This document shows, one piece after another, positions 3,031-50,442 of a DNA stretch of 64,000 bases. The position numbers and the translations under genes are program-made. The notes beneath the pieces are model-generated. The model had not been told where the DNA came from. It searched no databases and saw only the letters and a list, made by a program, of their open reading frames with translations. Position 1 is the first letter of the stretch. Each line of letters starts with the position of its first letter. The stretch comes from a virus (Duplodnaviria > Caudoviricetes). The stretch is taken from the IMG/VR virus record IMGVR_UViG_3300021255_000054. One strand, written 5' to 3'.

Positions 3031-3110
3031 TCGCTAAGAGAATTCAGAGAGTATAGAAATGCAGCGCGTGGGCACTATACTCGGGTGGGTTAAATTCCCA
3101 CGGCGTACTT

Positions 3111-3197
3111 GTAGGAGAATCTCGGTGTGGACTGAGGCTCGCCTGGAAAGCGATGCGTCCGTGATAAACGGATGAGGTTCGACTCCTCTCTCTTACG
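3111..3197 (+). tRNA. tRNA-Ser(GGA)
   Basis: CTGGAAA loop, long variable arm, G73. Confidence 0.88.
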
Positions 3198-3693: not shown

Positions 3694-3789
3694 AAGGCCA
3701 TTACAGCAAAATTTTTATAAGGATAAAAGATATGTTGATGTTACATAGCTGAGATGGTTCAAGTCCATCAAAATTTAAATGGCCTTGTT
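3694..3789 (+). ncRNA. CAGCAA-stem RNA, copy 2 (contains a T arm)
   Basis: AAGGCCATT-ACAGCAA ... GATGG-TTCAAGT-CCATC ... AATGGCCTT-GTT. Confidence 0.6.
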
Positions 3790-3791
3790 TT

Positions 3792-3915
3792 TAGACTCTT
3801 CAGCAACTTAAGTATACTTAACTCGCCATGTTAGAGTTTTTAGCTTAATTGGTAGAGCGCCCTATTTTAGATAGGGAGATGTGGGTTCAAGTCCCAGTTA
3901 ATACAGAGTCTAGTT
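3792..3915 (+). ncRNA. CAGCAA-stem RNA, copy 3 (D, anticodon and T arms, no acceptor stem)
   Basis: TAGACTCT-TCAGCAA ... GCTT-AATTGGTA-GAGC, CCCTA-TTTTAGA-TAGGG, TGGG-TTCAAGT-CCCA ... AGAGTCTA-GTT. Confidence 0.6.
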
Positions 3916-4079
3916 TTATATTATTTGAAAGGATATTATGGAAGAAGAGATTTTAGAACCATTAGTAGTAGAAGGCATTATGGATGATGAAGAATTGAAA
4001 GAAAAAGGGAAAGAATTAGATTTACTTTTTGATCGACTTTGGCAAGCAATGTTAAAAGATACTGGTTTATTTGATAAAT

Positions 4080-4166
4080 GACAGTGTGGCTGAGTGGGCG
4101 AAAGCGGCGGTTTGCTAAACCGTTGTCCTTGTACAGGGACCGAAGGTTCGAATCCTTCCACTGTCG
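4080..4166 (+). tRNA. tRNA-Ser(GCT)
   Basis: GGCGG-TTTGCTAAA-CCGTT arm, long variable arm. Confidence 0.9.
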
Positions 4167-4341
4167 TATATTAAAAGATAGGTGACTTAAATGAGAAGTG
4201 ACAATTCTAATATAAAAAGAATAGAAATCAAACATATGTTTGAATGTACTTGTTGGAATTGTAAGTAGTTTAAAGAAGAAAAAGAACAAAAGGAAATTAA
4301 AGAATCAGAAGATAAAGAAGATAATGCACCAGAACCGTGTT

Positions 4342-4510
4342 AATGCGGTGGCGGAAGAGGTAAACGCTGCGTCGTGAGACTACGGTAGTTACTTAATTCA
4401 TGGCCGAGATTGAAAAAGATCACTGACAGCCACTAATAGATAGGAATATTAGTAGAGATGGAGAGCGAAAAAACGTATGTCATGTAAGGTGCAAATCCTT
4501 GCCCGCATTT
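4342..4510 (+). ncRNA. tRNA-like RNA with ~110-nt insert replacing the anticodon arm (copy A)
   Basis: AATGCGG/CCGCATT acceptor; TGGCGGAAGAGGTAAACGC D region; CATGTAAGGTGCAAATCCTTGC T arm; paralog at 50308. Confidence 0.6.
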
Positions 4511-4512
4511 AT

Positions 4513-4669
4513 AGTCCCTTAGCGTAATGGTAGCGCAACGGACTTGTATGGGTCGTCTAGGTTGGAAGGCCGGCTCGGTGTATTAGAATACACAGATGAG
4601 AAGAAGTGAGTTCGATCCTCACCCCATGCATTGACTCCGTATGTGATGGTCCGATTCCATCAGGGACTG
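4513..4669 (+). tRNA. tRNA-Gln(TTG) interrupted in the anticodon loop by an 86-nt nested tRNA-like insert
   Basis: AGTCCCT/AGGGACT acceptor, GCGT/GCGC D arm, ACGGA/TCCGT anticodon stem; loop CT|TTGAC split by 4545-4630. Confidence 0.8.
4545..4630 (+). ncRNA. nested tRNA-like element (putative intron)
   Basis: TGTATGGG/CCCATGCA acceptor, GTCT-AGGTTGGA-AGGC D arm, GTGAG-TTCGATC-CTCAC T arm, irregular anticodon arm. Confidence 0.75.
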
Positions 4670-4696
4670 CGAATATTTAATAAAGAGATTAGACGT

Positions 4697-4945
4697 ATGA
4701 TTTTACACGGAAAAGAAATTACAGTACAAGTCGATAATATAGAACCATTCATTAATGAAAAATATGTAGGTTTTAAAATTTTATGGAGTGGTGATATTGG
4801 CTTTGGAGAATATACTATTTATAGGAAAGTTAATGAAAATAAATGGTATGTTGATGATGAATATATGGAAAATCCAAAAAATGATAGAACTTTTTTAAAA
4901 TTATTATGCGAAAATTTTATAAAACAGCTTGAGGAAATTGAATGA
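4697..4945 (+). CDS. hypothetical protein
   Basis: ORF; true start downstream of tRNA-Gln. Confidence 0.6.
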   Translation: MILHGKEITVQVDNIEPFINEKYVGFKILWSGDIGFGEYTIYRKVNENKWYVDDEYMENPKNDRTFLKLLCENFIKQLEEIE

Positions 4946-5385
4946 CATTATATACTTCTTATTTTGCTCAATTAAGAAATTTTCCACCTAATCTCGTAGG
5001 GCTCTCAACCGCAGTTTGGGAGCCCAAATGGCTTTAGCCCGGTAAAGACAAGAATGGAGCTATATGGCTTCCCATTCCTCCATTAAAGCCCGGAAAATCT
5101 TGTGATGGGCTATGCAATGGAAAATGTAATCCTAAGCATCCGCAGGATTGCTCTTTCTTAAAAGAGTATCGTAAACAATTAGATCAAATTAATTTTGAAG
5201 ACTTCTTACGTCAGCTATTAGAATTACGAGATAAAATTCGTGCTGGCGAACATTTAGATGATGTTGATTTTGCGCTATTAGTATATGAAGTTCCACAAAA
5301 TCAATGTAGTGAACGTGTCGTAATTCAATAGTGGTTTAAAGATCATGGAATGGAAATTGAAGAATGGCAGAAACTGAAATCTTGA
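4942..5385 (+). CDS. DUF488-like protein (2 TAG read as Gln)
   Basis: MTLYTSYFAQ ... LLVYE-x-C-x-R pattern; open only with TAG readthrough. Confidence 0.65.
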
Positions 5386-6982: not shown

Positions 6983-7480
6983 ATGCCTACTTTATATATT
7001 ATGTGTGGTCCTTCTGCAAGTGGTAAATCTACTTGGGCTAAGCAATTTATGTCAGATCATCTTGATGAAGATATTCGTTATGTTTCTAGAGATGAAATTC
7101 GTTTCGCACTTATCGGTGAGAATGATAAATATTTTGTGCGAGAAAAAGATGTATTCCGTAAATTTTCTACTACAATTGCGCAGACACTTGTAGATGGATT
7201 TGATGTAATTGCAGATGCAACTCATCTTAATGAATTTTCGCGCCGTAAGCTTACACAGGCAATTGATTATTATACTAAAGATTATGAAATTGTATATGTA
7301 AGTTTCAATGTGGATACAGATCTTTGCCTTGAGCGTAACTCTCACCGTGAAGGACGTGCAAATGTGCCTGAAACTATTATTCGTAATATGTGCAGAGATT
7401 ATAAAGAACCTGTACTTAATGAAGATGAACGAGCGAAGGAAGTGATTCATGTATATGCCGGAAATTTTCCTGACCAGTGA
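6983..7480 (+). CDS. polynucleotide kinase (AAA_33 / Pnk-like)
   Basis: GPSASGKST, VSRDEIR, DATHL, RNxxREG motifs. Confidence 0.88.
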   Translation: MPTLYIMCGPSASGKSTWAKQFMSDHLDEDIRYVSRDEIRFALIGENDKYFVREKDVFRKFSTTIAQTLVDGFDVIADATHLNEFSRRKLTQAIDYYTKDYEIVYVSFNVDTDLCLERNSHREGRANVPETIIRNMCRDYKEPVLNEDERAKEVIHVYAGNFPDQ

Positions 7481-8015
7481 TATGCACTTTTGTCATAATA
7501 AGGAGTTTCTTTATAAGCCACGCGGCTTTTCTTCTGTAGAAGAAATGAATGAAATTATTATTGAAAATTGGAATAAGACTGTTGGAGAACATGACACTGT
7601 ATATGTTCTTGGCGATATCATGCTTAATGATGATGACAAGGGCATTGAATGTATGCAGCGGCTGAATGGAGAATTTTTTATTATTTGGGGTAACCATGAT
7701 AGCGATAAGCGTAAGGATAGACTCTTTAAAGAATGCCGCTATATGAATGGTGGTTGGTATGCTTGGAATTTTAAGTATAATAATAAATATTCTATTTATC
7801 TAAGTCATTATCCTACTATTACTTCTAACTTTGATCAGAAGCATTTTTCCCAGCATGTATTCAACTTTCACGGGCATACTCATCAGCCAGTAAACTTTTT
7901 TGATGAGAAAAATCCATTTATGTATCATGTTGGAATGGACTCGCATAATTGTACTCCAGTAAATATTGAAGAAGCATTTTCTGACATTAAAAAGCAGTGG
8001 GAGAAAATTAAATGA
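7449..8015 (+). CDS. calcineurin-like metallophosphoesterase
   Basis: SDMHFCH, LGD, GNHD, HGHTH. Confidence 0.9.
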   Translation: MYMPEIFLTSDMHFCHNKEFLYKPRGFSSVEEMNEIIIENWNKTVGEHDTVYVLGDIMLNDDDKGIECMQRLNGEFFIIWGNHDSDKRKDRLFKECRYMNGGWYAWNFKYNNKYSIYLSHYPTITSNFDQKHFSQHVFNFHGHTHQPVNFFDEKNPFMYHVGMDSHNCTPVNIEEAFSDIKKQWEKIK

Positions 8016-8401
8016 AAGCTAATACTATAAAAAGAGAAGAAATTTGTTCATACACCACTGTTGACGGACAAACATTTGAAAAGTGGGTAGATGCTTTTAA
8101 TCATGAATCTGCTTTACTTAGTAAGCGTGAAATTTATAGCAGAACGGTAGAGTTACCTTTTGAAGATACTGAATATGGTGAATTATATAAAATTGATAAT
8201 TATGAAGATTATCTATACTTAAGATTTACAATATGGAATAGTTGCGGCTCATCCAGTTGGAAAGGCCCTGGGTGGTATCTTGTTTTCCATTATGATGGTG
8301 GAGATTATCCAGATAATTTTACTATCTATTACGTACCTAATTATTTAAATGATATAGCAATAGGAATTGCTAATATTCAAGAAATTATTTCTGATATTTG
8401 A
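8012..8401 (+). CDS. hypothetical protein
   Basis: ORF overlapping the upstream stop. Confidence 0.65.
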   Translation: MKANTIKREEICSYTTVDGQTFEKWVDAFNHESALLSKREIYSRTVELPFEDTEYGELYKIDNYEDYLYLRFTIWNSCGSSSWKGPGWYLVFHYDGGDYPDNFTIYYVPNYLNDIAIGIANIQEIISDI

Positions 8402-8545
8402 CTTTTAAATAAATTTATATTATAATTATTATGTTAAAAGATGAACAATGTCTAATTGGGCATCCATGTAAAAATTGTATTCTTACATGTAATTTTAATA
8501 AATCCCACAGTCGTGACAACGACCAAGATGAAAAGGAGAATGAAA

Positions 8546-10057
8546 ATGAACGAATTACTAAAGAACCTCAAGGAACGTGAAAATGTAACTTATACTGCGA
8601 ATGGCGCGAAAGCTTACCATTCTACTATGTCAAAGGTTTATGACCTTTTCGCGCAAGGTGGAGCTATGCGTAGAGCTTCTGAATCAGATTGTATCAATAT
8701 GTTTGCATCTGCCTATAAAGAGAATCCTACCTTAGCCTTAAAGTGTCTATTCTGGCTTCGTGATATCCGTGGCGGCCAAGGCGAACGTAGATTTTTCCGT
8801 CTATGCCTACAGTGGCTAGCAATGAACCACAGACACGAGGCATGGCGTCTAATTCCGTTTGTGGCTGAGTATGGCCGTTATGATGACCTATTCGAGCTAT
8901 TTGATACTCCTTGCGAGCCTGAAATGCTTGGATATATTAAGTATGTGATTGATAAGAATGAAGATCACCTTGTATATAAGTGGATGCCTTCTATCAATAC
9001 ATCTTCTAAGAATACTCAGGCGCGCGGACGTAAGATCGCGCGTGAATTCGGTCTAACTGAGCGTGAGTATCGTAAGATGCTTTCTGAAGGCCGTAAGGCT
9101 TGTAATCTTGTTGAAACCCTAATGAGCCAGAATCGTTGGGATGAGATTGCATTTAATAAGCTTCCTTCTCGTGCTGGTATCCTTTATTCAAAGGCATTCG
9201 CGCGCAGAGAAGAAACTAAGGAACGTTATGCTGCTTTTATGTCTTCTGATAAGACTAAGGTAAATGCTGGAACTCTATATCCTTACGATGTAGTAAAGAA
9301 AGCGCGCGAAGTTATGGGCGGTTCTAGCTGGTGGAATGATGTAAACAATGTATCTATTAAGGATGTTAATCGTTTGGCCGCAAATAAATATTGGGATAAT
9401 CTTACTGATTATTTCAATGGTGCTACTCTAAATGCTCTATGTGTATGTGATACTAGTGGTAGTATGCTTTGTGGCTATGACCGCAATGCTATTGCTCCTA
9501 TTGATGTTGCTATCTCTCTATCTCTATATACTGCTGAGCGCGCGAAGGGGCCGTTCCAGAATCATTTCATTAGCTTTAGTTCTAGACCTCAACTTATTGA
9601 AGTTGAAGGCGTGGATTTCTGTGATAAGGTATATCGTATCTATCGTAGAAATCTATGTGAAAATACTAACATTGAAGCTACTTTTGATTTGATTCTACAG
9701 ACTGCTGTTAATAAGCATCTGTCCCAGGATGATCTACCTGAAACACTAATTGTAATTAGTGATATGCAGTTTGACTATGCACGCACTAGTGCTCGTTATA
9801 GCGGCACTACTCTGATGGAGAAAATTGAAAGTAAGTGGAATTCTTATGGATATAAGATGCCTAAGCTTATCTATTGGAATGTTAATGCGTCTGGAGATGG
9901 TAATATTCCAATGAAGGATAAGGATGGCATTACATTCGTAAGCGGAGCTTCTCCTTCTATTTTTACTCAGATTCTGACCGGTAAGACAGGGATTGATCTT
10001 ATGCTAGAAGCACTTCTAAGTGATCGGTACGCACCAATCCATTCTTACTTAAATTAA
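8546..10057 (+). CDS. DUF2828 family protein (TROVE/Ro60-like helical domain plus vWA)
   Basis: TANGA, RDIRGGQGER, YGRYDDL, KWMPS, MIDAS CDTSGSM, ISDMQFD, YWNV. Confidence 0.85.
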   Translation: MNELLKNLKERENVTYTANGAKAYHSTMSKVYDLFAQGGAMRRASESDCINMFASAYKENPTLALKCLFWLRDIRGGQGERRFFRLCLQWLAMNHRHEAWRLIPFVAEYGRYDDLFELFDTPCEPEMLGYIKYVIDKNEDHLVYKWMPSINTSSKNTQARGRKIAREFGLTEREYRKMLSEGRKACNLVETLMSQNRWDEIAFNKLPSRAGILYSKAFARREETKERYAAFMSSDKTKVNAGTLYPYDVVKKAREVMGGSSWWNDVNNVSIKDVNRLAANKYWDNLTDYFNGATLNALCVCDTSGSMLCGYDRNAIAPIDVAISLSLYTAERAKGPFQNHFISFSSRPQLIEVEGVDFCDKVYRIYRRNLCENTNIEATFDLILQTAVNKHLSQDDLPETLIVISDMQFDYARTSARYSGTTLMEKIESKWNSYGYKMPKLIYWNVNASGDGNIPMKDKDGITFVSGASPSIFTQILTGKTGIDLMLEALLSDRYAPIHSYLN

Positions 10058-10081
10058 CCTTTTCTTCCTCTCTTATATATT

Positions 10082-10127
10082 AGTCAAGCAATTTATTGCT
10101 TGACTTTTTTATTGAATTTTGATATAA
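10082..10127 (+). terminator. intrinsic terminator whose 3' arm overlaps the next -35 box
   Basis: AGTCAAGCAA-TTTA-TTGCTTGACT plus T run; TTGACT...TATAAT. Confidence 0.7.
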
Positions 10128-10153
10128 TATTTTTAGAAAAGGAGAGATGATGA

Positions 10154-10927
10154 ATGGATAAACTTATGCTCGCCGTACAAAATCATCATAATTTTATTAT
10201 TAGTCAAGGCTTTAATGCAGTTATGACTGTATTAATTGGCTCTCAAAATTATGGCCTTGATAATGAAAATAGTGATATTGATACTTTTACTTTTATTTTT
10301 CCTTCTATGGAAGAGCTTGCTACCGCCGCAGAGCCGCAAGCAGGTGAATTTGAAGTAGAAGATGGTAAATGTGTATATAAAGATATTCGTATTGGCTTAA
10401 ATTTACTTAAAAGGACTTCTCCTAATAGTCTTGAATGCTTTGTAGGAAAGTATAGAGTATTTTCTGAAGAATATAGAGATATTTTCGAAAACTACTTAAA
10501 TGATGATATGAAAATGAATGCTATGACTCATTGTAATTATGATCATATGCTTTACGCCGCCGCAGGTATGGCTCATCAGCTTACCAAGCGTAGTATGCCC
10601 GCGGGAAAACGTTATTCACATGCTTTGCGCTTATGTAGCATGGTAGATACTTTTATTGATAGCTTTGATTATCGTTATTTGTTAGAATTGCTGCCTCGTG
10701 ATTATAGAAGTGCTTTGGACGCCAAGCGAGATACTGATAAAGCGCGAGATGGCTATTATGATAAAGAATGTGCAGCAATCGCGCAATTGCTTGATGATAA
10801 ACGTGACGAGTTTGTAAAATCGGAATTTAAAAAGAAAATGGAAACTGAAGGATTAGCTTTAATCGCACAGTTTCAAAAAGATTTAACTAAAAGATATATT
10901 CAACTAATGTTGGAAGAGGAGAATTAA
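10154..10927 (+). CDS. Pol-beta-superfamily nucleotidyltransferase
   Basis: GSQNYGL-x4-SDID motif. Confidence 0.8.
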   Translation: MDKLMLAVQNHHNFIISQGFNAVMTVLIGSQNYGLDNENSDIDTFTFIFPSMEELATAAEPQAGEFEVEDGKCVYKDIRIGLNLLKRTSPNSLECFVGKYRVFSEEYRDIFENYLNDDMKMNAMTHCNYDHMLYAAAGMAHQLTKRSMPAGKRYSHALRLCSMVDTFIDSFDYRYLLELLPRDYRSALDAKRDTDKARDGYYDKECAAIAQLLDDKRDEFVKSEFKKKMETEGLALIAQFQKDLTKRYIQLMLEEEN

Positions 10928-11358
10928 TGAATATTGATATTCACGCAGGAATGCGAGGACTAGTAAAAATTAATGGTAGTTGGCGCCCTTGTGAGTTAGT
11001 AGAAAGTAGTAACGTACATATTACTTCAAAGGGTTTATATCTCCCTTCATTACTAATTAATATGAGTAATGATGGCGAAGATATTGAAAATGAAGATACA
11101 ATAGATCATGAATATTGTGAAGAATTACTTCAGAATTACTTTTTAGAAGCTTTTCCGATTGATGATTGGGTAAAAGATCATTCAAAATATTTTATGACTA
11201 AAGAAGATTACATCACCTTTATTGAAGATGAAAATTTTAATCGTCAATTAGAAAATGCTTATGTTTCTGATGGTAAATATGGCTATTATAGTGTAGCTAA
11301 ATATACACGTAACTGGATTGAAAAGCAACCATTTAAATACATTGTAAGAGGAGATTAA
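10927..11358 (+). CDS. hypothetical protein
   Basis: ORF with RBS. Confidence 0.65.
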   Translation: MNIDIHAGMRGLVKINGSWRPCELVESSNVHITSKGLYLPSLLINMSNDGEDIENEDTIDHEYCEELLQNYFLEAFPIDDWVKDHSKYFMTKEDYITFIEDENFNRQLENAYVSDGKYGYYSVAKYTRNWIEKQPFKYIVRGD

Positions 11359-11359
11359 A

Positions 11360-11965
11360 ATGGAAGAACCTAAGCTTACTTGGAAAAAGTTTTTTGGACA
11401 TTGGAAAACTGTTCGTACTCATAGAAAATGGGTAAGATATTATTGTCATCTTGCCGGTATTACCTGGCGCGGCATAAAACATGATTTAAGTAAGTATTCT
11501 CCTATTGAATTTCTAGAATCGGCAAGATTTTGGACTGGAGACGAATCTCCTATTCACGCGGCAAAGCGATTTTATGGATATTCGCGCGCTTGGCTTCACC
11601 ATCGCGGCCGCAATCCACATCACTGGGCTTATTGGGCAGATAATTTTAGTGAAGGCTTAAAAGTATATTGTATGCCATGTAATGACTTCGTTGAATTAGT
11701 ATGTGATTTCTTAGCCGCAGGTCGTGCCTATAGTGGTGATTTTTTTAGTTATAGTGGCGAACGCGCTTGGTGGCTTAAAGATAGGGAGCGCGGCAATAGC
11801 GGTATGAATCCTAAGAATAAACTAATGCTTGATATCATTTTTAGTGATTTAGAATTTGCAGAAAATCATAGTCTTGCAGGATGCCCGACATCTCTTATTA
11901 CTTCTACCCCTGAGTCACTAATTAAATCAGGATATCTACAGGAAGTATGGAGGGCTAATAAATGA
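11360..11965 (+). CDS. HD-like metal-binding protein (DUF5662-type)
   Basis: HDLSKY, WLHHRGRNPHHW, ELVCD. Confidence 0.75.
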   Translation: MEEPKLTWKKFFGHWKTVRTHRKWVRYYCHLAGITWRGIKHDLSKYSPIEFLESARFWTGDESPIHAAKRFYGYSRAWLHHRGRNPHHWAYWADNFSEGLKVYCMPCNDFVELVCDFLAAGRAYSGDFFSYSGERAWWLKDRERGNSGMNPKNKLMLDIIFSDLEFAENHSLAGCPTSLITSTPESLIKSGYLQEVWRANK

Positions 11966-12262
11966 ATCAGCAAAGACAGGAAATTCCAATTGATAATGTT
12001 GGTACGGTACTCCAACAATTAGTTCAAGCTTGTAAAGCCGGAGACCCAGGACTTGAAAATATGCGATGTGCATATATATTAAAAGAAGATCCACTTATTT
12101 ATGTATATAGTATTTTTGATCTAATTGATAATTTAGTTAAGAAACCTTTAGATTTAAACACAGTAGAAAAATTTTATATTTATAGACCACTTAGCGAAAG
12201 TTAAGTGGTTGATTTTTTTTTAAAATTATTGTATAATATTTATACAGAAAGGGGAGATAGAG

Positions 12263-12979
12263 ATGCCAGTGGCGAAAACTTATGAAAAATATCCACTTGA
12301 TGGAGAGCCGTTTGAAGAAAATAATCGGCTTTATGTGTACGTAATCGCGCCCAAGGGCAAGAAGAAGGTGCGTTGGTATTCTAATGCAGAATATAAGCGT
12401 ATGTATCCTGACACAGTTATTGTCTCCTCTTTCAATGCGCGACAAGCCTTTGGTTTTGGAGAAGTAGGATACATCACTATTTTTAAAGGTGATGAAGATA
12501 CAATACGGAGTTGGGCTCAAGCTAGCTGGCCGCCTAAAGCCTGGTATAATACGCTTTTTAATTTTTATACACCTGGCGGCAGAGCATTAGAAAATTTGCC
12601 TTCTACCATTACTCCTATACAGGTCAAATGGTCTGATATAGCCGCAAATGAAACTCAGCTTAAATCTGATGAAGAAGTAAGAAAATATGTTATGGCACTC
12701 ACTACTGATATGGTGGATAGTACAAGCCACTTTCAAGGAACAAAAGATGAATGGCTTGAAAGAAAAGTTGTTATTAAAGAAAATAAAACAAATGAAAGTC
12801 ATTTCGGTGAAAAGCATACGCATGTTATGCTTGATGCCGAAGGTAATAAGTATATTTGGGAAACAGGCGCCAAAAATTATGCGCCTGCTATGGAAATTAA
12901 ATTAAAAATGAAGGTAAAGGAGCATAAGGAAATTAATGGAGAAAAATGCACGGTTGTCTGGTATTGTAAGGAAGTATAA
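12263..12979 (+). CDS. hypothetical protein with C-terminal OB-like domain
   Basis: ORF after promoter; ESHFG...DAEGNKYIW pattern. Confidence 0.6.
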   Translation: MPVAKTYEKYPLDGEPFEENNRLYVYVIAPKGKKKVRWYSNAEYKRMYPDTVIVSSFNARQAFGFGEVGYITIFKGDEDTIRSWAQASWPPKAWYNTLFNFYTPGGRALENLPSTITPIQVKWSDIAANETQLKSDEEVRKYVMALTTDMVDSTSHFQGTKDEWLERKVVIKENKTNESHFGEKHTHVMLDAEGNKYIWETGAKNYAPAMEIKLKMKVKEHKEINGEKCTVVWYCKEV

Positions 12980-13347
12980 AGCAATGGGACAGCTCTCCTT
13001 TATTAGAGACAAAGAACTGGTTAATCAATATTGTTTTGGTACTCCCACTACTGAACAGAAAAAAGAATTACAAAATATGGGTTTTTGTTTCTGGAGTATG
13101 CTTCAAGACCCTGAAACTAAAGAATTTTACGAGATGTGGATGAAATGACAAGAATACTAAATCCCCATTGGATGGGAATGATCGCGCGATGTAACAGCGG
13201 ATGCGGCGCTTTAATTGGTTTTGAGCCAGAAGATGTAAATAAAAATCAATGTATTACTTGCCCGCAATGCAAACAAGTATTATGGGTTCCATTTAATCCT
13301 AATTATGATGGAGTTATTAAAGAAGAAGAAGAAAAGGAGAACAAGGA

Positions 13348-13737
13348 ATGATTTATCTTATTTACGCTGCAGAACAGACCTATGGTGGCCTTCATGGTAT
13401 GTATAATGTTGATATTATTGAAGCAGATTCTGAAGAAGAAGCTGACGAATATGGCGAAGAAATGTCTCGTGATGTAATGGAAACCTATACTAGTATTCTT
13501 GATACTATGTATGAAGAAGCTTATGATGCTGCACAAAATGAATGTCTTGAAGAAGATACTGAAGAATATGAAGATTATGTTGGGACATATGTCGAAGATC
13601 TCATAGCTAATAATCTGGAATGGTCTGTATATGAACTGAGTTCAGAACATACTATGGATGAATATCGTGAGATGTTAAGAAATCATCAAGACTGGGAAGA
13701 TCTTAGAGATAAATATGCCATTAGAAAGGATGAGTGA
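13348..13737 (+). CDS. highly acidic hypothetical protein
   Basis: ORF, Glu/Asp-rich. Confidence 0.65.
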   Translation: MIYLIYAAEQTYGGLHGMYNVDIIEADSEEEADEYGEEMSRDVMETYTSILDTMYEEAYDAAQNECLEEDTEEYEDYVGTYVEDLIANNLEWSVYELSSEHTMDEYREMLRNHQDWEDLRDKYAIRKDE

Positions 13738-14531
13738 TATGTCATTAAATAGTATATTGGTTTTAATCGCAATTATATTAATTATTAGTTTTCTATTTAA
13801 TGATAATAACACACGGCCACTATAAAGAAGCAATGGATATATTAAAGGAGCGAGAATATGGCGAAACTATGGTTCAGAAACAGTAAAGGACAAGAAAGAT
13901 TTCTTACCGAGTGTGAAACTTTACAAGAAGTTAATATAGAAATTGATAAGTTTATTGCCGATGCTAATGATAGATATCCTAATAAGAGAGCATTCAAGCG
14001 CTACTATACTCGTATGTGGCAAGAGGATGGACGTTGGAAGTTTGATGTAGGCAGTTATACTGAATTCTTTTATTGGGATAGTGATAAAAGTTATGAGGAA
14101 ATGAGTAAAGAAAATGATGCAAACAATTAATTTTGGTGATGAAGCTCATATGCGTATTGCTAAGTTAGAAAAAGAAAATTTTGAGCTTAATGCTAAATTA
14201 CAATCGACAGAAAGGCGTCTTAGCTATACCAGTGATGAATTGGATCGAATTAGGAAAGATGCTAAGATTGGCGCTGCGTTAAAGGTAATTTTAAAGGAAA
14301 TAAAAGATAAATAACAATTATTGAGGTAAATATTATGTCGAATGAATATAGAGACTGGCTTTGGGATAAAGTGCAAGATATTGTACTTGAACGCGGACTA
14401 GCCGACAAAGTTTTTGGTACTTCCACTACAAGGTTTGTAGATGGACTTAAAGATGGCGCACCAGTTCGATTTGAAGTTTGGTTTGATCACGAACTAGGAG
14501 AATGGCGAGTTGAATATAGGGAGACAGGTAA

Positions 14532-14774
14532 ATGAAGAAAATTATAATTATTATACTTTGTTTATGTTGTGTATTTTTGCTTACGGGATGTACTCAAGTA
14601 AGTAAACCTGAAGGCTCTACTACTTATACTTATGCTATGATTATTATGCCTGATGGTTCAATTATTAAAGGAAAGTGCGAAGATTATATGCGATATTCTA
14701 ACAATTGGATGACAGTACAAATTAATGGAACTACATATCACTTAAATGATTGGCGAGTTACACTTTATAAATAA
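14532..14774 (+). CDS. putative lipoprotein
   Basis: MKK, hydrophobic stretch, LTGC lipobox. Confidence 0.7.
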   Translation: MKKIIIIILCLCCVFLLTGCTQVSKPEGSTTYTYAMIIMPDGSIIKGKCEDYMRYSNNWMTVQINGTTYHLNDWRVTLYK

Positions 14775-14835
14775 TTGACATTTTCTAAATTTATGATATA
14801 ATTATTATGTAAGAAAGAGAGAAAGGATGATATAA

Positions 14836-16062
14836 ATGCTAAATAAGAATCAAGAACGTGAACTTGCTTACGTAGTTCTAATTGATGGTATTGAACCGAT
14901 TCCTGGTTATGACCGCGTAGAACACGCAATCGTTGGCGGTTGGCGTGTAATTGTACAGAAAGACCAGTTTAAAGTAGGCGATCCTGCTATTTATTTTGAA
15001 ATTGACTCTCGTGTGCCTTCTGATAAGGAGTGTTTTGCTTTCCTCGAAAAACGGCATTATAAGGTAAAGACTTTGAAGATGTGTAAAACCCTGTCGCAGG
15101 GCCTACTGATGCACGCTAATGATTTTGGGTGGACTAATTACTGGGATGAAGATAATAAAGAATGGTGTATTAAAGATAGTGATGAATATCTACACTATTC
15201 TACCGATGAAACTCGTTTTCTTACTAAGCAACTTGGCGTAACCTACGCTGATGATGAAGACAACGCACGTAAGGCTCCTTCTGTAGATAAATACAAGAAG
15301 ATGGAAATGCGGCATCGTAAACTGTTTAAGAATCCTGTGATTCATTGGTTTATGCAGTATAAGTTTGGCCGCGAAGTTATGTTTTTCTTCTTTGGGAAGA
15401 AAAAGGATAAGAAGAATGGATGGCCTTCTTGGGTATCTAAGACTGATGAAGAACGTGTGCAGAATATGCCTTGGATATTGGAAGATTCCGGTGATTGGGT
15501 AGCTACTGAAAAGATTGATGGTACTAGCACTACTTTCACTATGAAGCGCGGGAAGTTCGATAAAAAGAACTTCTATGTATGCTCTCGTAATGTTTGCTTT
15601 GGTGAAGAAAATAAGCCTTGCTATTATGACACTAATGTATATTGGGAAATGGCAAAGAAGTATAATATTTTTGAAGTACTTTCTAAGATGCTTGAAAAGT
15701 ACCCGCAGGAAGAGTGGATTACCATTCAAGGTGAAACCTATGGTGATGGTGTACAGCGGCGTGATTATTCTCTAACTGAACATGATTTTGCCGCCTTTAA
15801 CTTGATTTTCTCTTCTAAAGGACGAGTCGGAACTCTGGAAATGCTCAAGATTCTTGCAGAATACGATATTCCTTGTGTTCCCGTACTTGAAGAATGCATG
15901 AAAATTAACCAGTTTGAAAATGTTGATGCTATTCTAGCTTATGCAGATGGTAATTCTGTAAAAGATGGCAAGCCTCGTGAAGGAATTGTATTCCGTTCTA
16001 TTGATGGCACTAAGTCTTTTAAGGCGGTAAGCAATAGCTTTTTGCTGAAATATCATGAATAA
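14836..16062 (+). CDS. ATP-dependent RNA ligase (Rnl2/DRB0094-like, N-terminal OB domain)
   Basis: TEKIDGTS, CSRN, QGETYG, EGIVFR, SFKAVSN. Confidence 0.88.
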   Translation: MLNKNQERELAYVVLIDGIEPIPGYDRVEHAIVGGWRVIVQKDQFKVGDPAIYFEIDSRVPSDKECFAFLEKRHYKVKTLKMCKTLSQGLLMHANDFGWTNYWDEDNKEWCIKDSDEYLHYSTDETRFLTKQLGVTYADDEDNARKAPSVDKYKKMEMRHRKLFKNPVIHWFMQYKFGREVMFFFFGKKKDKKNGWPSWVSKTDEERVQNMPWILEDSGDWVATEKIDGTSTTFTMKRGKFDKKNFYVCSRNVCFGEENKPCYYDTNVYWEMAKKYNIFEVLSKMLEKYPQEEWITIQGETYGDGVQRRDYSLTEHDFAAFNLIFSSKGRVGTLEMLKILAEYDIPCVPVLEECMKINQFENVDAILAYADGNSVKDGKPREGIVFRSIDGTKSFKAVSNSFLLKYHE

Positions 16063-23297: not shown

Positions 23298-23858
23298 ATG
23301 AATTGTTCATTAGTATTAAGCGGCAAATCTGGTAGCGGAAAAGACCAATTCGCACAGTATATGAAAGAAATATTAGCCGCACATAATAAACGCACCATTA
23401 TTATACATTATGCAGATGTATTAAAATTTTTCTTAAAAGAATTCTATGGCTGGGATGGCCAGAAAGATGCTATTGGTAGATCTTTATTACAGGGTGTTGG
23501 AACTGATCAGGTTCGCGCGCACAATCCAGACTATTGGACTCATGTAGTAGTAGATTTCTTAAAAGCTATTGAAGATTATAGTGACTTTGATGTAGCAATT
23601 ATTCCTGATGGTAGATTTGAAAATGAAGTTAATATTGCCTTATCTACATTAAATAATTGCTATAGTATTAGAATTGAAAGAACTAATGAGAATGGAACTC
23701 CTTGGGTTAATCCTAATCTTACTGAAGATCAATTAAAGCATCCTAGTGAAACTTCTTTAGATGTATTTGGTTGGGATTATATTGTACATAATGATGAAGG
23801 ATTGGAACTTCTTAAAGAAAGCGCCGAGACCGTACTTAAAGATTTGAAACTAATTTAA
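23298..23858 (+). CDS. dNMP kinase
   Basis: SGKSGSGKD, RSLLQ..GT, DGRFENE, HPSET. Confidence 0.85.
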   Translation: MNCSLVLSGKSGSGKDQFAQYMKEILAAHNKRTIIIHYADVLKFFLKEFYGWDGQKDAIGRSLLQGVGTDQVRAHNPDYWTHVVVDFLKAIEDYSDFDVAIIPDGRFENEVNIALSTLNNCYSIRIERTNENGTPWVNPNLTEDQLKHPSETSLDVFGWDYIVHNDEGLELLKESAETVLKDLKLI

Positions 23859-33627: not shown

Positions 33628-34176
33628 ATGAAAATTTATTTAGCAGGACCAATTTTTACTTATGGTGATTTACTTAGAAATACTGAATGGGCAGTTAAAA
33701 TACGAGCTGCAATTCCAGGAGTAGATCTATATTCCCCTGTTGAAAACACTGATATCAATGGAGTCGAAGGGAAAAAGAAATTTGCGGGCTCTCAAGAAAT
33801 TGCTAATGGGGATAATATTAGATTAAATAAAACTGATATTCTTGTGGCTTGCATAGATGGAGATGTCCTCCCATCCGGCACGTGTGCGGAAATTGGTAAA
33901 TTTCATGAAAAGATTGAACGTGGAGATCATAAATATATTGTTGGTATTTGTACTGATAATAGACAAATGTTCCTAACTCATAGTGAAGCCAAAGATAAAG
34001 GCGGCGCTGCGGCATTAGGTGAGCAGCAGTATAGTTATCAGAATCTTTATGTTACTGGTCTAATTAAACAGGGTGGCATCCTTGTGAGTAATATTGAAGA
34101 TGCTATTGTCTTTATTAAAGAACATGAAGATGAATTTAAAGAAGAATCAGCTAGCGCTGTATCTGAATGGAGGTAA
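33628..34176 (+). CDS. nucleoside 2-deoxyribosyltransferase family
   Basis: KIYLAGPIF, YSP, SGTCAEIG, NLYV. Confidence 0.85.
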   Translation: MKIYLAGPIFTYGDLLRNTEWAVKIRAAIPGVDLYSPVENTDINGVEGKKKFAGSQEIANGDNIRLNKTDILVACIDGDVLPSGTCAEIGKFHEKIERGDHKYIVGICTDNRQMFLTHSEAKDKGGAAALGEQQYSYQNLYVTGLIKQGGILVSNIEDAIVFIKEHEDEFKEESASAVSEWR

Positions 34177-50307: not shown

Positions 50308-50442
50308 AATATAGTGGCGGAATAGGTAGACGCTACACAATGGTGTGAGAGTATGGCGACCTATGTGCAAAGTAGAACGTGCCAGAGCGATTCGAAGAGA
50401 TATAGCCGAAACCATGTAAGGTGCAAATCCTTACCTATATTT
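50308..50442 (+). ncRNA. tRNA-like RNA with ~80-nt insert (copy B)
   Basis: AATATAG/CTATATT; TGGCGGAATAGGTAGACGC; CATGTAAGGTGCAAATCCTTAC; followed by terminator AGAGCC-GTAA-GGCTCT and T run. Confidence 0.6.

Follow-up and report, generated by a model that had tools for sequence, protein, structure and literature searches.

To our knowledge, only two mechanisms of tRNA splicing are established: self-splicing of group I introns, and cleavage and sealing by an endonuclease and a ligase at bulge-helix-bulge motifs. Phage tRNA introns that are themselves shaped like a tRNA have been reported before, with no mechanism given. Devoto et al. (2019, Nat Microbiol, PMC6784885, Fig. 4 and Table S6) described "enigmatic" introns in tRNA genes of Lak megaphages "that may encode a tRNA," in a report that gives no mechanism, boundary rule, or allelic series, and a study of jumbo phages with alternative codes notes that such introns "could encode another tRNA" (PMC13037316, 2026). 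In the literature, we found no paper that proposes or tests a mechanism for them. An earlier sequence-only reading of this DNA had proposed a new splicing route; the arrangement itself is not a first sighting, as the two reports precede it. What this locus adds is a natural series of alleles, a full-cloverleaf intron that lacks CCA and has its boundary defined at N74, and a homologue of the intron that stands by itself.

The window, a stretch of 64,000 nucleotides from a phage of the Caudoviricetes (IMG/VR record IMGVR_UViG_3300021255_000054), carries at 4513-4669 on the plus strand a complete tRNA cloverleaf with an 86-nt insert in its anticodon loop. Like the Lak introns, this insert interrupts the anticodon loop of a phage tRNA gene, has an acceptor stem and a T arm, and is absent from close relatives with intact exons. 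The Lak introns are also alike in being almost invariant in sequence across samples, with horizontal spread noted (PMC6784885), and in having a tail of 1-2 nt after the inner acceptor (Table S6); Lak phages read TAG as sense, as the window phage probably does, and there too tRNA finders mislabel the gene as Thr TGT. In contrast, Lak introns lie after position 37 (37/38) and have an extra 5' hairpin and an A/T-rich AAATTAAA linker before the tRNA-like part, whereas in the window the first intron base is +1 of the mimic itself and the insertion point is 34/35. The 5' hairpin with linker and the 37/38 position are thus a feature of the Lak subtype and not a definition of tRNA-shaped introns.

Group I introns (RF00028) also occur in the anticodon loop of bacterial-type tRNA genes and are polymorphic and mobile. 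The window intron, however, has 86 nt instead of ~170 nt or more and lacks a P3-P9 core, and it matched neither RF00028 (none at E up to 10) nor the ribozyme models. Therefore, it does not self-splice by group I chemistry, as had already been argued from its length and missing core. The search does detect group I cores where they are present: in relatives, the CUA suppressor tRNA harbors one (L012 3356-3535, 49.3 bits, E 8e-12, gathering score 50) in a compact intron of 175-177 nt (genes at L012 3331-3599, L017 4062-4330, and L005 2024-2289). The clade uses both classical self-splicing and tRNA-mimic introns.

Archaeal and eukaryal introns (bulge-helix-bulge, EndA/Sen, RtcB or Trl1) resemble the route proposed below in that cutting and ligation depend on proteins while the exons are held by the tRNA body. 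A bulge-helix-bulge motif consists of two 3-nt bulges separated by a 4-bp helix. The window has no such motif, and its junction bases are instead opposed across a 3 x 6 internal loop; furthermore, the predicted ends would be 3'-OH and 5'-phosphate, not 2',3'-cyclic phosphate and 5'-OH. No homologues of EndA (PF01974), RtcB, or RNase Z were found in 5 related phage contigs searched for each, most of them incomplete, with one complete genome for PF01974, and therefore the nucleases would be the host's. T4 anticodon-loop repair (PrrC versus Pnk and Rnl1) likewise involves a phage kinase/phosphatase and an RNA ligase, and the corresponding window genes lie 2-10 kb downstream of the tRNA. Unlike the T4 system, which mends a host-inflicted cyclic-phosphate break with Rnl1, the window would have a programmed break made by RNase P and RNase Z, with ligatable ends and an Rnl5-like ligase. 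tRNA-like elements such as mascRNA, which is embedded in MALAT1 and mimics a tRNA apart from a degenerate anticodon arm, are released from longer RNAs by RNase P and RNase Z. Their flanks are not rejoined, whereas rejoining in the window would yield a functional tRNA.

The tRNA-Gln gene and its alleles

The gene is made up as follows, together with its upstream neighbor:

4079..4167, plus strand: tRNA-Ser(GCU), the syntenic anchor directly before tRNA-Gln in all relatives
4513..4545, plus strand: 5' exon with the acceptor 5' strand, D arm, anticodon-stem 5' strand, and C32 U33 U34 (ARAGORN with introns; equals the first 33 nt of L022)
4546..4631, plus strand: tRNA-mimic intron, 86 nt, between bases 34 and 35, inner tRNA numbering 1-74 (G1 ... 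A73 T74); absent from L022, L019, L010, L023, and L003; boundary from L036
4632..4669, plus strand: 3' exon with U35 G36 A37 C38, the anticodon-stem 3' strand, variable loop, T arm, acceptor 3' strand, and discriminator G (equals the last 38 nt of L022)

When introns are allowed, ARAGORN places a tRNA at 4513-4670 and recognizes 86 nt of inserted sequence within its anticodon loop; the nested gene is missed by ARAGORN in its default mode and by Rfam at the gathering score. In the minimum free energy fold of 4513-4669 (−55.3 kcal/mol, z = −2.75), the outer acceptor, D, anticodon, and T stems are all formed, and the insert makes up its own multi-branched domain. Removal of the insert gives the 7-nt loop CTTTGAC found in the uninterrupted genes of relatives, and one of these (L022) equals the two window exons joined, base for base; the exons of the other uninterrupted alleles are identical or near-identical. 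The label "Thr(TGT)" given by ARAGORN is therefore a boundary artefact, and the identity of the outer gene as tRNA-Gln(UUG), which had been read from the window alone, is borne out by its orthologues. It is the only tRNA-Gln(UUG) gene of the window. The Gln identity elements of the E. coli set are a weak 1:72 pair, G73, G10, U35, and G36; A1-U72, G73, G10, U35, and G36 are present in the outer gene, with the reservation that the E. coli set may not be that of the host. The outer T loop, TCCGATT (window 4640-4646), has a C at position 55, where U or pseudouridine is near-universal, and some tRNA-Gln alleles (L034, L003) have a canonical TTCGA T loop.

Relatives were gathered via the neighboring kinase gene and via DNA patterns; a search of the phage GenBank collection with window 3700-5200 gave no DNA match. 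The tRNA-Gln locus occurs in five states:

L022, L019, L010/L028, L023, L003/L027: uninterrupted tRNA-Gln with loop CTTTGAC (Gln UUG)
L001 and seven metagenome contigs: tRNA-Gln with the 86-nt insert of the window
L004/L026: tRNA-Gln with an unrelated 83-nt tRNA-like insert
L018, L021: tRNA-Gln with an unrelated 43-nt minihelix of acceptor plus T arm that ends in ACCA
L020, L024, L025: tRNA-Gln truncated after ~26 nt by an HNH-type open reading frame that brings a different tRNA-Gln

An assembly chimera is ruled out by the presence of the same nested structure in at least eight independently assembled contigs. Across 12 alleles, 99.6% of the 252 cells of the outer cloverleaf (stems of 7, 4, 5, and 5 bp) are paired and 6 pairs are changed on both sides. 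The single mismatch occurs in L036, which looks like a recombinant, and the remaining stem changes are compensatory. The insertion points of the three unrelated tRNA-mimic inserts (86, 83, and 43 nt) differ by no more than one base, and all of these inserts leave halves that rebuild exactly CTTTGAC, either as CTT plus TGAC or as CTTT plus GAC, as expected if the spliced product is under selection.

The window intron is found on at least three exon backgrounds that also occur without it. In addition, the genes shared by the window and G001, the record of L001, are 75-84% identical, compared with 96-99% for the tRNA-Gln gene. Both observations point to horizontal spread of the intron, probably as a mobile unit. 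A target-site duplication was rejected, since the TTG repeat that flanks the window insert is not common to the 83-nt and 43-nt inserts. In the truncated alleles (L025 4496-5010, also L020 and L024), an HNH-type endonuclease reading frame with an in-frame TAG is followed by the different tRNA-Gln(UUG), which looks like a homing-endonuclease cassette that displaces the resident allele.

The inner tRNA mimic and its boundaries

The intron contains the following parts:

4546..4552, plus strand: 5' strand of the inner acceptor stem, paired with 4623-4629 (7 of 7 pairs), its first base abutting the 5' exon
4555..4570, plus strand: inner D arm, 4-bp stem and 8-nt loop with GG (read from sequence; identical in L002; a D arm in the Rfam alignment)
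4574..4600, plus strand: irregular arm where the anticodon arm would be, made of a 6-bp hairpin with a 4-nt loop inside a 3-bp stem (fold and comparison with L002)
4606..4622, plus strand: inner T arm, 5-bp stem and loop TTCGATC, stacked directly on the acceptor 3' strand
4623..4631, plus strand: inner acceptor 3' strand (4623-4629), discriminator A (4630), and extra intronic T (4631), without CCA

The Rfam tRNA model matches 4546-4630 with 23.3 bits (E 0.039; gathering score 29), and the alignment covers the acceptor, D, and T arms and skips the anticodon arm; the score stays below the gathering score because this arm is aberrant. No inner anticodon is present, since no 7-nt loop can be drawn, not even that of a stop-codon reader around the TAGA loop. 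Hence, the view that the insert is a non-decoding tRNA mimic holds.

A free-standing homologue of the intron lies at L002 5277-5350 (on a contig shared with L029 and L035), outside any recognizable tRNA. It has the same D arm, ends in GCA, and lacks the inner 6-bp hairpin. When the two copies are compared, all pairs of the inner cloverleaf are formed (100%), and 7 of them differ at both bases, 6 robustly; 3 of these 7 pairs are in the acceptor stem and 2 in the T stem, and the 3-bp stem covaries as well. None of 500 shuffles reached this covariation, and therefore the inner fold is under selection. Among the at least eight contigs with the window intron, only 3 intron positions vary, one of which keeps its pair as U-G; in L034, the closing pair of the inner hairpin has changed from U-A to U-G.

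As far as structure can be read from sequence, the inner domain has the features of an RNase P substrate, namely, a 12-bp stack of acceptor and T stem and an elbow of T loop and D loop. In the window intron, U(-1) pairs with A73. Pairing of this type in bacterial pre-tRNAs can move the RNase P cut to -1, as in tRNA-His processing.

Five other tRNAs of the clade (Lys, Trp, Ile, Asn, and Leu) carry similar inserts, which gave 10 distinct inserts for comparison: Gln 86 nt, its L036 variant, Gln 83, Gln 43, Lys 47, Lys 73, Trp 75, Ile 75, Asn 49, and Leu 47 (Leu in G006). Only the exons were used to set their boundaries: when joined, the halves had to yield either the same loop as in the uninterrupted orthologue or the anticodon loop to be expected. 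For each of the 10 inserts, the 5' boundary defined in this way is +1 of the insert's own acceptor stem, a 6-7-bp helix, and thus the RNase P site, and a hairpin of 5 bp and 7 nt stands immediately before the 3' strand of that helix in every one of them. Insert by insert, the agreement has a p of ~0.01-0.06 versus shuffles, where the registers include ties blind to the expected anticodon. The junction within the outer loop varies (34/35, 35/36, or 36/37), and therefore the insert and not the host tRNA sets the 5' cut.

At the 3' end, the distance between the inner structure and the boundary varies. Seven of the 10 inserts end in ACCA, GCCA, or GCAA, which is the position of a mature tRNA 3' end, and in 7 inserts the exons place the boundary after N76, compared with N74 in the window and in the Gln insert of L004 and about N73 in the Asn insert of G001. 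The tail that follows the inner stem measures 2 nt in the window (AT) and in the 83-nt intron (AC), 4 nt in the CCA types, and 1-2 nt in the Asn insert of G001. RNase Z cuts directly after the discriminator N73 or, in the case of Thermotoga-type enzymes, after CCA.

In the window itself, registers 4545-4630 and 4546-4631 give the same spliced RNA. L036 tells them apart: base 4631 is a C there while the exons are unchanged, so that only the split CTT / TGAC rebuilds the loop, which fixes the register 4546-4631. The earlier coordinates 4545-4630 thus had the length of 86 nt right and were one base off in register. A blunt 8-bp register, with cuts at -1 and after A73, was also considered. It gives the same RNA in the window and a Gln CUG loop in L036, and it is not a general rule, because L004 would then have a UCG loop of Arg type and L018 a loop of 9 nt. 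The tRNA-Asn(GUU) at G001 33864-33983 contains a minihelix intron of 46 nt, to which the introns of L011 and L018 are related. This intron has a shortened 3' tail, no CCA-like end, and a 1:72 mismatch, as either a variant that is tolerated or a copy in decay would.

A candidate excision route and its rivals

We propose that the tRNA-mimic intron is excised by RNase P and an RNase Z-type cut and that the exons are sealed by a ligase, a proposal that in our judgment stands about an equal chance of being right or wrong; we infer splicing itself and every enzymatic step from sequence, while the anatomy, the exact polymorphism, the boundary rule, and the maintained pairing of both cloverleaves are observed directly. 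The intron would have kept the recognition features of tRNA end-processing enzymes, a 7-bp acceptor on a 5-bp T stem and a T-loop/D-loop elbow, and would have lost the decoding arm. In the first step, host RNase P would cut 5' of intron position +1 and leave a 5' exon with a 3'-OH. An RNase Z-type endonuclease would then cut 1-2 nt past the acceptor stem, or after CCA in the CCA-ended relatives, and leave a 5'-phosphate on the 3' exon. Finally, with the exons kept in place by the outer anticodon stem, sealing by an ATP-dependent RNA ligase would restore CUUUGAC as a loop of 7 nt. A putative RNase P cut at the 5' junction is supported by the boundary rule drawn from the comparison of inserts. 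Hence, the earlier suggestion that host tRNA end-processing enzymes set the cuts fits well at the 5' side; at the 3' side, the variable boundary fits it less well. As had been cautioned at the outset, and counting against the route, RNase P at +1 and canonical RNase Z after N73 would produce an 8-nt loop in the window. The U(-1)-A73 pair, which might move the RNase P cut, likewise counts against it. Furthermore, RNase P alone cannot make the Lak 5' splice site, with its extra hairpin and linker, and therefore the model may be incomplete.

Downstream of the tRNA, the window encodes several enzymes that could act on RNA:

6983-7480, plus strand: polynucleotide-kinase-like P-loop kinase (Pfam AAA_33; with the phosphoesterase, PHROG 505 and 547)
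7449-8015, plus strand: calcineurin-like phosphoesterase (Pfam Metallophos; with the kinase, PHROG 505 and 547)
8456-10057: DUF2828/DUF7788 protein, Ro60-like; RNA-binding according to PHROGs
10154: RlaP nucleotidyltransferase
14836..16062, plus strand: ATP-dependent RNA ligase, Rnl5-like, with an N-terminal OB fold and a nucleotidyltransferase domain (Pfam PF21189 and PF09414), the candidate exon sealer

Together with a DUF5662 protein, these genes form an RNA-repair-style set at 6983-16062. The likely sealing enzyme would be the Rnl5-like ligase at 14836. Its open reading frame matches PHROG 968, "RNA ligase," with E 9e-68, and the closest solved structure is the Naegleria gruberi RNA ligase NgrRnl (5COT, E 2e-30; query residues 196-406 aligned with chain residues 139-337). 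A search of the 8 larger related contigs found a homologue in each, whether tRNA-Gln was interrupted or not, and since one of these contigs has an uninterrupted tRNA-Gln, co-occurrence of ligase and intron is uninformative. Rnl5 enzymes have been characterized as sealers of nicks in duplexes, not of anticodon loops. Cleavage by RNase P and by RNase Z produces 3'-OH and 5'-phosphate ends, and an ATP-dependent ligase can join these without prior healing. Thus, the kinase and the phosphoesterase, which the sequence-only reading had assigned to the joining of the halves together with the ligase, would not be required by the route.

The strongest rival explanation, which we consider unlikely, holds that a mobile tRNA-like element killed the tRNA-Gln gene and that RNase P and RNase Z release a functional inner RNA, e.g., a decoy or a scaffold, while the halves are never rejoined. 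Indeed, the compensatory changes in the free-standing homologue suggest that the inner RNA may serve a function independently of the tRNA; across contigs, the intron has changed less than the exons have (3 substitutions in its 86 nt versus at least 7 in 71 nt), and the genome is rich in other tRNA-derived RNAs that do not decode. A killed gene is, however, difficult to reconcile with three unrelated inserts whose halves keep the exact 7-nt Gln loop although the split point differs. Nor do the exons show decay in any of the at least eight contigs, and their stem changes are compensatory save the one mismatch in L036; this integrity could, on the other hand, reflect a recent insertion rather than selection. 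In addition, the intron-bearing genomes G001 and G002 have no second tRNA-Gln, and the same design recurs in the Lys, Trp, Ile, Asn, and Leu tRNAs.

Quite improbable, in our view, is splicing by a dedicated, unrecognised phage endonuclease or by self-cleavage, in which the tRNA shape would serve folding, stability, or recruitment of the ligase. A nuclease of this kind could account for a 3' boundary that lies 1, 2, or 4 nt past the inner stem and for the Lak 5' extensions, which RNase P and RNase Z alone do not explain, and the kinase, phosphoesterase, Ro60-like protein, and RlaP would suit the healing of 2',3'-cyclic phosphate and 5'-OH ends. Yet the relatives searched have no EndA-like gene, the insert matches no ribozyme family, and the RNase P-site 5' boundary in 10 of 10 inserts and the CCA-type terminus in 7 would be unexplained coincidences. 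That the composite is never processed inside and the outer tRNA is a stable scaffold showing the inner domain as cargo is suggested by the adjacent element at 4342-4510, which keeps an acceptor, a Leu-type D arm, and a T arm around a long unrelated sequence in place of the anticodon arm, but it is highly improbable, as a scaffold would have no use for loop halves that add up to CTTTGAC, alleles with identical exons are known without the insert, and the inner domain starts and stops at tRNA termini.

Returning to excision by end-processing enzymes, we tentatively extend it, with somewhat less than even confidence, to a third, enzyme-borrowing route of tRNA splicing in phages of this clade: a mimic with the ends of a mature tRNA would be cut out by the cell's RNase P and 3' tRNase, the gap would be resealed by a phage ligase, and the mimic might have a second life as a free RNA and might have originated by ligation into a nuclease-broken loop and copying into DNA. 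That the excised mimic may persist as a free tRNA-like RNA is suggested by its free-standing homologue. An origin by ligation into a broken anticodon loop would explain the CCA ends of most inserts and their location at the nuclease-prone sites 34-37. That the intron hides the anticodon from nucleases, or times the supply of tRNA-Gln, is pure speculation.

If true, removal by RNase P, a 3' tRNase, and an RNA ligase would be a third mechanism of tRNA splicing, and a housekeeping role would fall to phage RNA ligases, for which repair is the only usual explanation. Since tRNA finders miss or mislabel such genes, phage tRNA repertoires and analyses of recoding are biased. The locus is a favorable test bed, because one and the same tRNA-Gln is found intronless or with three unrelated tRNA-mimic introns, with both CCA-less and CCA-ended designs, a free-standing copy of the intron, and a candidate ligase 10 kb away.

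Probable TAG recoding and neighboring RNA elements

Reading TAG as sense raises the coverage by long open reading frames in several 4-kb bins of the window (e.g., from 0.54 to 0.94), and a frame of 1323 amino acids appears. Relatives have a CUA suppressor tRNA of 86-88 nt with a long variable region (G001 23445-23532, G002 105503-105588, and G006 183528-183615). To judge from these sequences, TAG read-through is likely in the window phage; its earlier description as a Gln-recoded phage goes beyond this.

The element at 4342-4510 belongs to a family of RNAs on a tRNA scaffold, which recurs in the window at ~50308-50442 and in L013 (412-506 and 612-770), L003, L009, L007, L025, and G001. Its members combine a terminal stem of 5-7 bp, whose two strands covary from copy to copy, with a Leu-type D arm and a T stem of 6 bp that closes an unusual loop, TGCAAAT; where a tRNA would have its anticodon arm, they have unrelated sequence of 60-130 nt. 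The family has no match in Rfam. A further element, at window 3792-3915 (tRNA-like core 3834-3905), has an 8-bp terminal stem followed by CAGCAA that encloses a tRNA-like body; the Rfam tRNA model gives it 43 bits, its loop is UUUUAGA, its acceptor stem is poor, and a similar element is found at L002 5203-5271. Since the genome encodes the Ro60-like DUF2828/DUF7788 protein, this RNA may be its Y-RNA-like partner. The related contig L005 contains a ROOL RNA at 11077-11659 (311.8 bits) and a skipping-rope RNA at 3097-3164 (38.1 bits).
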